DNA of 47,700 nt from an uncultured Rhodospirillaceae bacterium (GTDB lineage Bacteria; Pseudomonadota; Alphaproteobacteria; Rhodospirillales; Defluviicoccaceae): assembly GCA_964495295.1 (NCBI GenBank), contig CAZBWP010000002.1, positions 1 through 47,700 on the forward strand, read 5' to 3'. This document shows positions 3,699-20,954 of this stretch, piece by piece (the first letter of the stretch is position 1; every line of letters begins with the position of its first letter). Both the position numbers and the translations under genes were made by a program. The notes beneath the pieces are model-generated. The model saw only the letters and a program-made list of their open reading frames with translations, did no database searches and had not been told where the DNA came from.

Positions 3699-3789
3699 GG
3701 ATGGGTGGCCGAGCGGCTGAAGGCGCTCCCCTGCTAAGGGAGTATGGGTCAAAAGCCCATCGAGGGTTCGAATCCCTCCCCATCCGCCA
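3699..3789 (+). tRNA. tRNA-Ser(GCU), type II with long variable arm, CCA encoded
   Basis: Acceptor GGATGGG/CCCATCC, D arm GCCGAGCGGCTGAAGGC, anticodon loop CT-GCT-AA, long variable arm GTATGGGTCAAAAGCCCATC, T arm GAGGG-TTCGAAT-CCCTC, then GCCA. Confidence 0.93.
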
Positions 3790-17217: not shown

Positions 17218-19092
17218 ATGTATCGCGACGCGGACCGGCAGAAGGTTTTCACCCGCCGGGCGCTGATGCTGGCCGGCGGCAAAATGCTGCTGCTGAGCGG
17301 CCTCGCCGGTCGCATGTATGAGTTGCAGGTGGTCGAATCGAGCCGGTATGCGACCCTGGCGGAGGAGAACCGGATCAACCTGCGCCTGTTGGAGCCGAGC
17401 CGCGGGCGAATCTTCGACCGCTTCGGGCGTCCGCTGGCGGTCAACCGCCGCACCTATCGCATCCTCCTGGTCGCCGAGGATGCGCCCGACGTGCGCGCGA
17501 CCCTGGCGGCGCTGCGCACCATCGTCGCCATCGACGGCGAGGCGGAGGCGCGTGTCCTGCGCGACGTGCAGCGGCGCCGCAAGTTCATCCCGGTCACCGT
17601 GCACGACGACCTGCAGTGGGAGCAGGTCGCCCGCGTCGAGGTGAACACCCCGGAACTGCCCGGCATTTCCATCGATGAAGGCCAGCGGCGGAGCTATCCG
17701 CACGGCACCGAACTGGCGCACGTCATCGGCTACGTGGCCGCCGTCTCCGAGAACGAACTGACCGGCGACCCGTTGCTGGAACTGCCGGGCTTTCGAATCG
17801 GCAAATCGGGGATCGAGAAGGTCCACGACCTGAGCCTGCGTGGCGCGGGTGGTCGTTCGGCGGTCGAGGTGAACGCGTTTGGCCGGGTCATCCGCGAGCT
17901 GTCGCGCAAGGAGGGCGCCGCCGGCGCCGACCTGCGAACGACCATCGATCTCGATCTGCAACTGGCCGCCAGCCGGCGGCTCGGTTCGGAAAGCGCCGCG
18001 CTGGTCGTCATCGATGTCCACAGCGGCGAGATCCGCGCGCTCGTCTCCAATCCGGGCTTCGATCCCAATGCCTTTTCGCGAGGCCTGAGCCGCGAGGAAT
18101 GGCAGGCTCTGGTCGACGACCCGCGGGCGCCGCTGACCAACAAGGCGATCGCCGGCCAGTACGCGCCGGGATCGACGTTCAAGATGGCGGTGGCGCTGGC
18201 GGCGCTGGAGCGTGGGGTCATCAACGAGGCGTCGACCGAGTTCTGTCCGGGCCACCTCAAGATCGGCAACCACGCCTTCCATTGCTGGAAGCGGGGCGGG
18301 CATGGCCGGATGAACCTGCGCAGCGCGATCGTCGAATCGTGCGACGTCTATTTCTATGAGGTGGCACGGAAACTCGGCATCGACCGCCTCTCCGCGGGCG
18401 CCGAACGGCTCGGTCTCGGGCAGACGCTCGGCATCGACCTGCCGGGTGAGCGGGCAGGGCTGCTGCCGACCCGCGCGTGGAAGCAGGCGGCCTTGGGCAA
18501 GCCGTGGCTCGCCGGCGAAACGGTGATCGCCGGCATCGGCCAGGGGTACGTTCTGTCGACGCCGCTGCAGCTTGCCGTGATGACCGCGCGCCTCGTCAAT
18601 GGCGGCCACGCGGTGACGCCGCGCCTGACCGTGCCGGCAGCGGGCGGTGCCGCGGCCGGGCAGGGGGCGGCGCCGGTGGGATTCGCTCCCCAGCATCTGA
18701 ACGCGGTGCGCGAGGCCATGGTCGCCGTCGTCGCCGACCGTCGCGGCACCGCCCGCGGCGCCGCCATCGGCGATCCCGCCCTGGAGATGGGCGGCAAGAC
18801 CGGCACCTCTCAGGTGCGGCGCATTACCGCCGCGGAGCGCGCCGCGGGCGTCCGCAAGAACGAGGACCTGCCTTGGGAACGGCGTGACCACGCATTGTTC
18901 GTCGGCTTCGCCCCGGCCCATGCTCCGCGCTATGCGGTGGCCGTGATCATCGAACACGGCGGCGGCGGCGCCAAGGCCGCGGCTCCGGTGGCGCGGGACA
19001 TCCTGCGCGAGGCGCAAAGGCTGGACGCGGAGCGCGCCGGGAGCCGGCCCGCCGCCGATGCGTCGCCGCCGCCCGACGGGGCACGGACATGA
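17218..19092 (+). CDS. mrdA: penicillin-binding protein 2 (elongasome transpeptidase)
   Basis: RGRIFDRFGRPLA in the N-terminal domain. Transpeptidase motifs STFK (PGSTFKM), SCD/SxN region (ESCDVYF) and KTGT (GGKTGTSQV). Confidence 0.93.
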   Translation: MYRDADRQKVFTRRALMLAGGKMLLLSGLAGRMYELQVVESSRYATLAEENRINLRLLEPSRGRIFDRFGRPLAVNRRTYRILLVAEDAPDVRATLAALRTIVAIDGEAEARVLRDVQRRRKFIPVTVHDDLQWEQVARVEVNTPELPGISIDEGQRRSYPHGTELAHVIGYVAAVSENELTGDPLLELPGFRIGKSGIEKVHDLSLRGAGGRSAVEVNAFGRVIRELSRKEGAAGADLRTTIDLDLQLAASRRLGSESAALVVIDVHSGEIRALVSNPGFDPNAFSRGLSREEWQALVDDPRAPLTNKAIAGQYAPGSTFKMAVALAALERGVINEASTEFCPGHLKIGNHAFHCWKRGGHGRMNLRSAIVESCDVYFYEVARKLGIDRLSAGAERLGLGQTLGIDLPGERAGLLPTRAWKQAALGKPWLAGETVIAGIGQGYVLSTPLQLAVMTARLVNGGHAVTPRLTVPAAGGAAAGQGAAPVGFAPQHLNAVREAMVAVVADRRGTARGAAIGDPALEMGGKTGTSQVRRITAAERAAGVRKNEDLPWERRDHALFVGFAPAHAPRYAVAVIIEHGGGGAKAAAPVARDILREAQRLDAERAGSRPAADASPPPDGART

Positions 19093-19107: not shown

Positions 19108-20256
19108 ATGGGCCTGCAAGGCCATCGCCAACACGAGATCACGCTGGGCCGCAAGCTGTGGCAGGTGCGCTGGCTGTTCGTGCTGCTGCTCTGCGCCGCG
19201 GCGTCCGTCGGCGTCGGGCTGCTGTACTCGGCGGCCAACGGCAGCTTCGAGCCGTGGGCGGTGCGCCACGTCGTTCGCTTCGCGGTGTGCCTCGGCATTC
19301 TGCTCGTGGTCGCGCTGGTCGATATCCGCGTCTGGCTGCGCGGCGCCTACGGCATCTATGTCGTCTGTCTGATCCTGCTCGTTGCCGTCGAGGTCGCCGG
19401 GTCGGTGGGCATGGGCGCCCAGCGCTGGATCAACCTCGGGATCATCAATCTGCAGCCGTCGGAGTTCATGAAGATTGCGCTGATGCTGGCGCTGGCCCGC
19501 TACTTCCATTTCCTGGCGGTCGAGGACATCGGCCGGCCGTTGGTGCTGCTTCCGCCGCTGTTCCTGGTGGCGGTTCCGGCGCTGCTGGTGCTCCGTCAGC
19601 CAGACCTGGGAACGGCGTTGATGCTGCTGCTTGCCGGCGGGATGCTGTTCTTCGTGGCCGGCGTGCGCCTGTGGAAATTTGCGGTGGTGATCGTCGCCGC
19701 CGCCGCCGCCGCGCCCCTGGCCTGGGGCATGCTGCGGGACTATCAGCGACAGCGGGTGCTGACGTTTCTCGATCCCGAGAGCGATCCGCTCGGCGCCGGC
19801 TATCACATCATCCAGTCGAAGATCGCGCTCGGCTCCGGCGGCATCAGCGGCAAGGGCTTCCTGCAGGGCACCCAGACCCATCTGAACTTCCTGCCGGAAA
19901 AGCAGACCGATTTCATCTTCACCATGCTCGCCGAGGAATTCGGGCTGATCGGCGCGCTTGGGCTGCTGATGCTCTACGTGCTCATCCTCGGCTACTGTTT
20001 CGCCATCGCGCTGTCGTCCCGCAACCAGTTCTCGCGATTGCTCTCGATCGGTGTCGGGGTCACGTTTTTTCTCTATCTTTTCATCAACATCGCCATGGTG
20101 ATGGGGCTGATCCCGGTGGTCGGGGTGCCGCTGCCGCTGGTCTCCTACGGCGGGACGGCGATGCTGTCGCTGATGTTCGGCTTCGGACTGTTGATGAGCG
20201 CCCACATCCACCGGGATGTCCTGATCGGTCGCCGCGGGGCCGACGACGCGGCCTGA
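19108..20256 (+). CDS. rodA: rod shape-determining protein RodA (SEDS glycosyltransferase)
   Basis: QPSEFMKIALMLALARY, LRQPDLGTAL, LPEKQTDFIFTMLAEEFG and PLPLVSYGGTAML are SEDS family motifs. Confidence 0.93.
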   Translation: MGLQGHRQHEITLGRKLWQVRWLFVLLLCAAASVGVGLLYSAANGSFEPWAVRHVVRFAVCLGILLVVALVDIRVWLRGAYGIYVVCLILLVAVEVAGSVGMGAQRWINLGIINLQPSEFMKIALMLALARYFHFLAVEDIGRPLVLLPPLFLVAVPALLVLRQPDLGTALMLLLAGGMLFFVAGVRLWKFAVVIVAAAAAAPLAWGMLRDYQRQRVLTFLDPESDPLGAGYHIIQSKIALGSGGISGKGFLQGTQTHLNFLPEKQTDFIFTMLAEEFGLIGALGLLMLYVLILGYCFAIALSSRNQFSRLLSIGVGVTFFLYLFINIAMVMGLIPVVGVPLPLVSYGGTAMLSLMFGFGLLMSAHIHRDVLIGRRGADDAA

Positions 20257-20422
20257 CGGCGCGGGCCGTCCGAAGCCAAACGCCTCGACAATCGCTGGAG
20301 CACTTGCTAGATACGGTGCCTTCCCGTGCACGGCTTGGCGCGGGCGTTCGCGTCGCGTCGGCGATGCCAACGGATTTGGCCAACGCACGGGGAGGGAACG
20401 AGGCACCGCACGAGGACACGGA

Positions 20423-20715
20423 GGGCCGTTAGCTCAGTTGGTAGAGCAGCTGACTCTCGATTGGGAGCCCACGTCGGAAACGGGGTGGTGACAAGGCGTC
20501 AAAGTCGGGGAACCCGTCCGGTGCGGCCGACGGCAATCCCGAGCCAAGCCCCGCGAGGGGAAGGTGTAGAGACCAGACGGCGCCCGCCTACGTCCCGGTG
20601 ACGGGATACGGCGATGGGATGGTCCGGGCCACAAACCCCAGCGAGCGGGGGCGGCGAAAGCCGTGGTGGTGGAGTAATCAGCGGGTCGAAGGTTCGAGTC
20701 CTTCACGGCCCACCA
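20423..20715 (+). tRNA. tRNA-Lys(CUU) gene interrupted in the anticodon loop (exon 1 20423-20457, exon 2 20675-20715)
   Basis: Joined exons give a 76-nt cloverleaf: GGGCCGT-TA-GCTC-AGTTGGTA-GAGC-A-GCTGA-CTCTTAA-TCAGC-GGGTC-GAAGG-TTCGAGT-CCTTC-ACGGCCC-A-CCA. It is very close to canonical bacterial tRNA-Lys as I recall it. Confidence 0.9.
20458..20674 (+). ncRNA. group I self-splicing intron (IC3-like, Azoarcus/Agrobacterium tRNA-intron lineage), 217 nt, no ORF
   Basis: P1: exon CUCU pairs with intron GGAG (20464-20467), with U57-G64 as the wobble. P10: GAUUG (20459-20463) pairs with exon-2 UAAUC. The terminal nucleotide is G20674. GNRA-capped helices are GAAA 20477-80, GCGA 20553-56 and GUGA 20598-601. 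P4 is UCGGG/CCCGA and P5 is CCGUC/GACGG. The core GAAGGUGUAGAGACCAGACGGCGCCCGCCUA (20560-20590) closely matches my recollection of the Azoarcus ribozyme core. Confidence 0.88.
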
Positions 20716-20954
20716 ACACCTGTTGCAGCACCCGGCGGGCGGTGACGTCGGGCGCCTTTCCAGCAAATGCCACAGGACCACCCGATCGGCCTGTATCGGA
20801 AACTGGCGTCGAAAACGATCGGTCGATCAGGTCCGGCGGTCCGATCGAGCGGTGCGGCACGTCGGGCGCACGGAAGCCTCCGGGCGCCGCGCTGTCTTGA
20901 TCACGGCCCGAATCACCGTGGATCCGCTGCGGCGGCAAGGCGCCAGAGCCGCGT

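Follow-up and report, generated by a model that had tools for sequence, protein, structure and literature searches.

In the window, a 47.7-kb stretch of DNA from an uncultured Rhodospirillaceae bacterium that was analysed as a whole, two halves of a tRNA-Lys(CUU) gene are separated by 217 nt of other sequence. This raises the question of what the insert is, whether the gene could still deliver a tRNA that decodes AAG, and whether such an interruption is as novel as an earlier note, made from the sequence of the window, had proposed.

The split tRNA-Lys(CUU) gene and its locus

When the stretches 20423-20457 (35 nt) and 20675-20715 (41 nt) were joined, ARAGORN identified a 76-nt tRNA-Lys(ctt) whose 5-bp anticodon stem closes the 7-nt loop CU-CUU-AA and whose CCA end is encoded, in agreement with the flawless tRNA-Lys(CUU) described in the earlier note. 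The insert of 217 nt (20458-20674) lies between anticodon nucleotides 35 and 36. It is preceded by U20457 and ends with G20674. If both boundaries are moved one nucleotide to either side, the rule of a U at position -1 and a terminal omega-G is violated and the anticodon changes, and thus 35/36 is the sole consistent junction. In the unspliced 47.7-kb window, the tRNA-Lys(CUU) gene was missed both by ARAGORN and by the Rfam tRNA model. The only tRNA that was conventionally detected in the window (ARAGORN; Rfam at gathering score) is a tRNA-Ser(GCU) at 3699-3789 (+). On the unspliced region, the intron mode of ARAGORN proposed a tRNA-Arg(ccg) that would have a long variable arm and an intron of 196 nt; this was rejected as a miscall. 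The features of the locus outside the insert are as follows:

20285..20313, + strand: promoter-like sequence TCGACA-N17-TAGATA with TGC before it, about 110 nt upstream of the tRNA 5' end; putative, based on a conserved motif
20423..20457, + strand: 5' exon of tRNA-Lys(CUU) with acceptor 5' strand, D arm, anticodon stem 5' strand, and C32 U33 C34 U35 (ARAGORN on the joined exons; locus comparison)
20675..20715, + strand: 3' exon of tRNA-Lys(CUU) with U36 A37 A38, anticodon stem 3' strand, variable loop, T arm, acceptor 3' strand, and CCA (ARAGORN)

Upstream of the tRNA gene lie the genes for MreC, MreD, PBP2 (17218-19092), and RodA (19108-20256), and downstream, on the opposite strand, genes for an aldehyde dehydrogenase and an alanine dehydrogenase. 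The closest RodA homologues are named Rhodospirillales or Rhodospirillaceae, and the order PBP2-RodA-tRNA-Lys(CUU) is common to 10 intron-bearing loci of the genome scan described below. For the analysis of presence and absence, RodA homologues were sampled independently of the intron. In this sample, an uninterrupted tRNA-Lys(CUU) gene is located directly 3' of rodA at four loci (L192, L193, L194 from Telmatospirillum sp. J64-1, and L196); three sampled rodA loci have no tRNA at this place and two contigs stop at the gene. The joined exons of the window, which form a canonical tRNA-Lys(CUU) cloverleaf, are identical to these four uninterrupted genes at 65-68 of the 76 nt, and nucleotides 10-48, which reach from the D arm to the anticodon arm across the junction, are identical to the intron-less rodA-linked genes. 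Since the joined exons match uninterrupted genes at the orthologous locus, the intron is polymorphic there. The survey of related genomes that the earlier note had proposed thus yielded Rhodospirillales loci with and without the insert, and its presence or absence at one syntenic locus offers a clean system in which intron gain and loss can be followed.

The promoter-like motif, in the form TCGACA-N16-18-TAnAnn and often with TG before it, occurs upstream of the gene in the window, in the close relative L188, and in 11 of 16 further related loci. It is present in all four intron-less loci (L192, L193, L194, and L196) too. In a generic sigma-70 scan the motif stayed below threshold, and neither a canonical promoter nor an intrinsic terminator was detected. 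Short-read contigs of close relatives, whose RodA proteins are 92-100% identical, break at or inside the tRNA-Lys(CUU) gene: L188 stops exactly at the 5' splice site (at the base that corresponds to window position 20457), L001 stops inside the intron near window position 20511, and L187 stops 9 nt past rodA. These contig breaks may have arisen because the assembly graph forks at a tRNA half that is repeated, or because intron-plus and intron-less alleles are mixed in the population.

Group I identity and anatomy of the insert

The earlier note had interpreted the insert as a group I intron and had named the Rfam model RF00028 as a check. At the gathering score of 50 bits, RF00028 found no match anywhere in the window. 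A permissive local search of 20300-20850 (551 nt) yielded a match at 20493-20585 with 29.2 bits (E=1.5e-5), which spans P3-P4-P5-P6 and the P7 5' strand. This check thus turned out negative at the threshold and positive below it. Three isolates and one MAG that carry this intron type reach only 30-45 bits, and therefore a sub-threshold RF00028 score is typical of the class. According to Williams (2020, bioRxiv 10.1101/2020.01.27.920355), the Rfam seed is without bacterial introns and a cut-off of 18-20 bits was used. Because ARAGORN and the Rfam tRNA model miss the unspliced gene and RF00028 remains below threshold, genomes with this intron seem to be without tRNA-Lys(CUU). A family covariance model (R1) was built from the core, J2/3 to P7', of 30 relatives, whereby the window and its nearest subclade were excluded. 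Searched against the whole 47.7-kb window, this model of bacterial tRNA IC3 introns gave a single significant match (20489-20628, 128.1 bits, E=5.4e-36).

For the analysis of covariation, the window intron was aligned with 54 homologues and a P1-P10 structure was laid out by hand. In the following list, paired cells and changed pairs refer to these 55 sequences:

20458..20674, + strand: group I (IC3-type) intron, 217 nt, without ORF (RF00028 29.2 bits; family model 128.1 bits; 86% identity to its nearest relative L147 and 76% to the published seed Mpe6.Lys.4Ug)
20454..20467, + strand: P1, exon CUCU (20454-57) with internal guide GGAG (20464-67) and the wobble U20457·G20464 at the 5' splice site (read from the sequence)
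20469..20488, + strand: P2 with L2 GAAA tetraloop (20477-80) and one G·G mismatch; 7 pairs, all changed on both sides, 93.5% of cells paired
20495..20500, + strand: P3 5' strand GGCGUC, partner 20579-20584 (GGCGCC), pseudoknot with P7; 100% of cells paired, 4 of 6 pairs changed on both sides
20505..20542, + strand: P4 (20505-10 / 20537-42) around P5 (20514-33), with J3/4 AAA and J4/5 AA adjoining; P4 99% and P5 76% paired, and the Rfam alignment spans this stretch
20543..20565, + strand: P6 (GCC/GGU) and P6a (CCCC/GGGG) with GCGA cap; 98% and 97% of cells paired, with changes on both sides
20569..20575, + strand: P7 5' strand G(A)GACCA, partner 20620-20625 (UGGUCC); 100% of cells paired, 2 pairs changed on both sides
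20585..20613, + strand: P8 with the internal loop UAC/AC, which is tetraloop-receptor-like, and L8 GUGA; 98.6% and 77% of cells paired, 8 pairs changed on both sides
20629..20669, + strand: P9 three-way junction of P9 (CCAC/GUGG), P9a (20636-50), and P9b (20652-63) with L9b GAAA; 95-98% of cells paired, with covariation, and the same layout in most Williams seeds
20674..20674, + strand: omega-G, the terminal intron nucleotide; G in all 55 sequences, whereby the boundary search tried only positions after a G

In the proposed P1-P10 structure 91.7% of the cells are paired, compared to 34-45% when the partners are slid by one to three columns. In total, 37 of the 70 pairs changed on both sides, and none of 500 shuffles attained the observed value on any measure. 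The covariation is strong for P2-P9, including the pseudoknot of P3 and P7; in P7, for example, GACUA/UAGUC in place of GACCA/UGGUC is a compensatory exchange. P1 is retained in all 55 sequences, though the search pattern demanded it, and both P1 and a part of P4 are invariant only for this reason. In the minimum-free-energy fold of a 229-nt stretch with the intron and its exon flanks, 50 of the 59 nested pairs of the model were recovered. The intron alone folded no better than shuffled sequences (z=0.22), a comparison that is uninformative for a GC-rich pseudoknotted RNA. Judged from the sequence, where structure, covariation, and homology agree, the insert is a group I (IC3-type) intron, and the earlier assignment of a group I intron that splits tRNA-Lys(CUU) at 35/36 is thereby backed.

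At the splice sites, the CUCU:GGAG helix P1 with its U·G wobble (U20457·G20464), the terminal G (G20674), and a possible pairing P10 between GAUUG (20459-63) and UAAUC (20675-79) were all found as the earlier note had described them. The constancy of the U·G wobble and of omega-G in the 55 sequences was partly imposed by the search pattern and the boundary search. The P1 loop, CGAUUG, contains the P10 strand. A P10 of 5 bp occurs only in the alphaproteobacterial subclade of the window and shrinks to 2-4 bp in the other homologues; to judge from this pattern, P10 would be a helpful element, not a conserved one. The pair G20571-C20624, beside the bulged A20570, aligns with G130-C177 of Azoarcus and is presumably the guanosine-binding site. 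GNRA loops cap four helices (L2 GAAA, L6a GCGA, L8 GUGA, and L9b GAAA), one more than had been noted before. P5 is fully paired in the window, and 49 of the 55 relatives have an internal loop there; the fully paired P5 could change the docking of the L9 loop. As noted before, a homing-endonuclease ORF is absent: none was found inside the 217-nt intron, which is occupied by ribozyme helices and is thus not a mobile intron with a homing endonuclease.

Taken together, the locus is very probably a functional tRNA-Lys(CUU) gene, split between U35 and U36 by a 217-nt ORF-less IC3 intron of the Lys.4Ug class, which was named before for tRNA-Lys introns at this site (see below). We infer the splicing chemistry from the group I family, and the sequence itself supplies the anatomy and the conservation. 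The gene downstream of mreCD-PBP2-rodA would be transcribed, probably from its own promoter at ~20285-20313. The intron would then fold into P1-P9 with the P3/P7 pseudoknot, whereby the GAAA loops L2 and L9b would clamp the two domains. Exogenous guanosine or GTP would attack after U35, which is held as the U·G wobble in P1; subsequently, G20674 would enter the G-site, P10 would align the 3' exon, and the exons would be ligated. RNase P and 3' trimming would finally give the AAG-decoding tRNA.

Alternatively, the insert could be a decayed relic that does not splice, so that the locus would be a tRNA pseudogene and AAG would be decoded by the tRNA of another gene. The sub-threshold RF00028 score, the G·G mismatch in P2, the atypical, fully paired P5, and the intron-less copies that relatives have at the same locus would fit such a decay. 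However, every core helix is intact, and the differences from the relatives are compensatory (A-U vs G-C in P2, C-G vs U-A in P3, and C-G vs U-A in P7). J3/4, J6/7, the bulged A of P7, the U·G wobble, and omega-G are kept across the homologues, the exon cloverleaf is perfect, and the match to the family model is full-length at 128 bits. We thus consider a relic highly improbable and favour the functional, splicing gene. The intron lacks an endonuclease gene and is present or absent at the same Rhodospirillales locus; it would therefore be an old passenger that is sporadically kept or lost, not an actively homing element.

Distribution of the CUU/35-36 intron and the existing catalogue

A scan of 185,579 species-representative genomes with one pattern, which combined the CUU/35-36 junction with J3/4-P4, returned 65 loci. 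Nine of them are chance matches in coding sequence and the other 56 are split tRNA-Lys(CUU) genes, a number that is a lower bound since the pattern was strict. In all 56 genes the intron follows nucleotide 35. The intron sizes span 207-305 nt and lie at 207-247 nt except for one intron of 305 nt that has an AT-rich insert in P9. By taxon, the scan gave:

Acidobacteriota (mostly Pyrinomonadaceae): 26 genomes
Alphaproteobacteria: 22 genomes
Unassigned Proteobacteria: 2 genomes
Gammaproteobacteria: 1 genome (MAG)
Chloroflexota: 3 genomes
DPANN archaea: 2 genomes (MAGs)

Three alphaproteobacterial isolates, Skermanella stibiiresistens SB22, Mesorhizobium sp. CAU 1741, and Falsiroseomonas sp. HW251, carry the CUU/35-36 intron, and the arrangement was also found on two IMG/VR contigs. 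A broad IC3 core pattern found at least 120 loci in the viral collection, mostly tRNA-Leu(UAA), and one of them (L011) is a tRNA-Lys(CUU) split at 35/36. Brute-force splicing combined with ARAGORN gave many ambiguous calls per viral locus and was used as a pointer only. The exons track host taxonomy; those of the Acidobacteriota, for example, have no encoded CCA. A crude neighbour-joining tree largely places introns of one phylum together; in this tree the window intron groups with introns from Alphaproteobacteria MAGs, with L147 as the nearest (86% identity), and the UUU seed that was published lies within the CUU cluster. The guide GGGAG can pair with CUCU, or with CUUU via G·U, which accounts for the occurrence of the intron in both isoacceptors. 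The family alignment and the model thus show that the CUU/35-36 type is widespread. Two of its members deviate in their peripheral helices: an Acidobacteria MAG (L169:6596-6912, -) carries about 90 nt of inserted AT-rich sequence in P9, together with a second copy of a P9b segment, and an Alphaproteobacteria chromosome (L152:7741-8000, +) has a long P8 insert that runs beyond the fetched locus.

Three loci with a tRNA-Lys(CUU) split at 35/36 by an IC3-like intron come from the two DPANN MAGs of the scan (Pacearchaeota ARS1180 and a Woesearchaeota MAG) and from a 21-kb metagenome contig (L165:583-796, +; L166:1089-1297, +; L206:9934-10216, +). Their exons look archaeal, with the D-loop AGUCUGGUUAGAGC, the T-loop UUCAAAU, and no encoded CCA. 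The 21-kb contig encodes a CDC48/VAT-type double-AAA ATPase and DUF7090/DUF835-like proteins. The flanking genes of the Pacearchaeota locus (L165) were examined for their origin and pointed to neither an archaeal nor a bacterial one. All 39 archaeal group I introns of Nawrocki et al. (2018) were found in rRNA genes, and a Pacearchaeota tRNA intron was put down to mis-binning by Williams (2020). The three loci may be true cases of a group I intron in a tRNA gene of archaea.

On the plasmid pCTX-M3 (NC_004464.2, ~61824-62122; L207:2424-2722, +) we observed a complete, unannotated tRNA-Leu(UAA) gene with an IC3 intron at 34/35, for which RF00028 gave 36.8 bits (E=1.3e-7). Its neighbours are a hypothetical gene and an AAA-ATPase gene (probably tmrB) beside aac(3)-IId, and the module that contains it is flanked by IS26 and ISCfr1. 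In a blastn search, 1,331 plasmid records matched the core of the window intron, most of them (about 1,265) at 60-80% identity; the matches listed come from E. coli, Klebsiella, Salmonella, Acinetobacter, and others, and of these pCTX-M3 was the only one inspected. If the other plasmid matches are the same element, an intron-bearing tRNA gene travels with an aminoglycoside-resistance module. Gordonia phage Daredevil (NC_048021.1, 41847-42128; L208:1201-1482, +; also L048) carries an unannotated tRNA-Lys(UUU) gene with a 238-nt group I intron at 34/35, about 570 nt from the phage integrase gene and with no annotated gene in between. This split tRNA is probably the attP copy of a host tRNA. Copies of the attP type may explain why intron-containing tRNA genes are abundant on IMG/VR viral contigs (at least 120 loci with the core pattern).

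The earlier note had suggested a host tRNA and an insertion site that were new for the IC3 lineage. In Williams (2020), the host/site types of tRNA introns were raised from 4 to 21 and include Lys.4Ug (after the fourth nucleotide of the anticodon loop, i.e., 35/36), Lys.3Ug, and Lys.2Ug. The seed alignment given there includes Mpe6.Lys.4Ug (exon ending in CUUU, anticodon UUU), Mle24.Lys.3Ug, and Dba165.Lys.2Ug. The window intron has the traits of the Lys.4Ug class, namely a tRNA-Lys host, the arrangement C32 U33 C34 U35 / intron / U36 A37 A38, U(-1), and omega-G. A literature search, which returned mostly organelle papers, found no explicit description of the CUU-isoacceptor form of the 35/36 intron, and a 2025 paper on a group I intron database held nothing on tRNA-Lys. 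Cyanobacterial "group I introns" of 22-49 nt in tRNA-Lys, -Arg, and -Gly genes (PMC5733544) were considered as prior art and discarded, as they are too short for group I ribozymes. Thus, isotype and site are already catalogued, the class having been published in 2020, and the same arrangement is widespread, with 56 species genomes and two IMG/VR contigs; the novelty claim falls, and the window intron is one more member of Lys.4Ug. [quoted passage not shown]

Two readings go beyond this. A speculative and rather unlikely one is that the CUU-isoacceptor 35/36 intron is an ancient lineage of its own that has descended vertically in Acidobacteriota, Alphaproteobacteria, and Chloroflexota. The guide GGGAG, which it has in common with the UUU form, would have permitted a jump between the isoacceptors through G·U wobble, and the long retention could mean a function, e.g., that the supply of tRNA-Lys(CUU) is tied to guanosine nucleotide levels. 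The other reading, which builds on the earlier note, is that of a host tRNA and a site so far unknown for IC3 introns, reached by recent transposition between anticodon loops. It would agree with older reviews and databases, which according to Williams (2020) knew only four bacterial tRNA hosts, and with the fact that the sole published Lys.4Ug sequence readable there sits in the UUU isoacceptor. However, that same source has had the Lys.4Ug class in print since 2020, with a seed that is 76% identical to the window intron; in the crude neighbour-joining tree this UUU seed nests inside the CUU clade, and the guide GGGAG accommodates CUCU as well as, through G·U, CUUU. Moreover, host and site are identical in 56 species genomes from at least three bacterial phyla, and the intron clades track the host phyla, which argues for long residence and not for a recent jump. 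A recent transposition to a new host is accordingly very unlikely. That the locus is an artefact of assembly or binning, a chimera of a tRNA and an unrelated ribozyme, would fit the breaks of the relatives' contigs at the 5' splice site (L188), in the intron (L001), and after rodA (L187), but has a negligible probability, as 56 independent assemblies, among them three isolates and long-read chromosomes, show the same order of exon, intron, and exon together with complementary P1 and P10.

Comparison with known tRNA introns

The window intron is 76% identical to Mpe6.Lys.4Ug, 72% to an Arg.3Ug seed, ~66% to Leu seeds, and 55% to the Azoarcus Ile2.5Ug seed. Mpe6.Lys.4Ug shares with it the isotype, the 35/36 site, U(-1), omega-G, and the guide GGGAG, as well as P3 (GGCGUC/GGCGCC), P7 (GACCA/UGGUC), and a two-hairpin P9 with a GAAA loop. 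The two introns differ in that the seed sits in the UUU isoacceptor (CUUU/U) and the window intron in the CUU isoacceptor (CUCU/U), and in L6a and L8.

The tRNA-Ile(CAU) intron of Azoarcus sp. BH72 (Aol6.Ile2.5Ug) has the same IC3 architecture with GAAA in L2 and L9 and likewise lacks an ORF. Several of its core strings are almost as in the window (GUCAAA.UCGG.GAA, CCGAGCCAAGC, and GAAGGUGUAGAGAC.AGACGGC.CC), in line with the near-identity of the core stated in the earlier note. The similarity does not extend beyond the core, as the overall identity is 55%. Furthermore, the Azoarcus intron interrupts a tRNA-Ile, at 36/37. Its P9 consists of one hairpin and its P5 and P6a are larger; in the window intron P9 is a three-way junction (+21 nt), P8 is longer, and P5 and P6a are shorter. 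In length, 217 nt in the window compare to ~205 nt in Azoarcus (a seed row of 208 nt that includes 3 exon nt). The region after P7' measures 49 nt compared to 28 nt in Azoarcus, a difference of ~21 nt or one hairpin, and not the 60-80 nt of extra P9 hairpins that had been estimated before. In the Williams seed alignment, a two-hairpin P9 is the norm among bacterial tRNA IC3 introns and Azoarcus is the exception.

The introns of tRNA-Leu (seed Ncf2.Leu.3Ug, 66% identity) resemble the window intron as IC3 introns in an anticodon loop with a P9 three-way junction. They differ in their host, tRNA-Leu, in their site, 34/35, and in being far more abundant, as they make up most of the at least 120 viral-contig matches. 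Lys.3Ug introns of tRNA-Lys(UUU), such as Mle24.Lys.3Ug and that of Gordonia phage Daredevil, share the isotype and an IC3-like core with the window intron, whereas they are located at 34/35, one nucleotide further upstream, in the UUU isoacceptor, and Mle24 is 55% identical to it.
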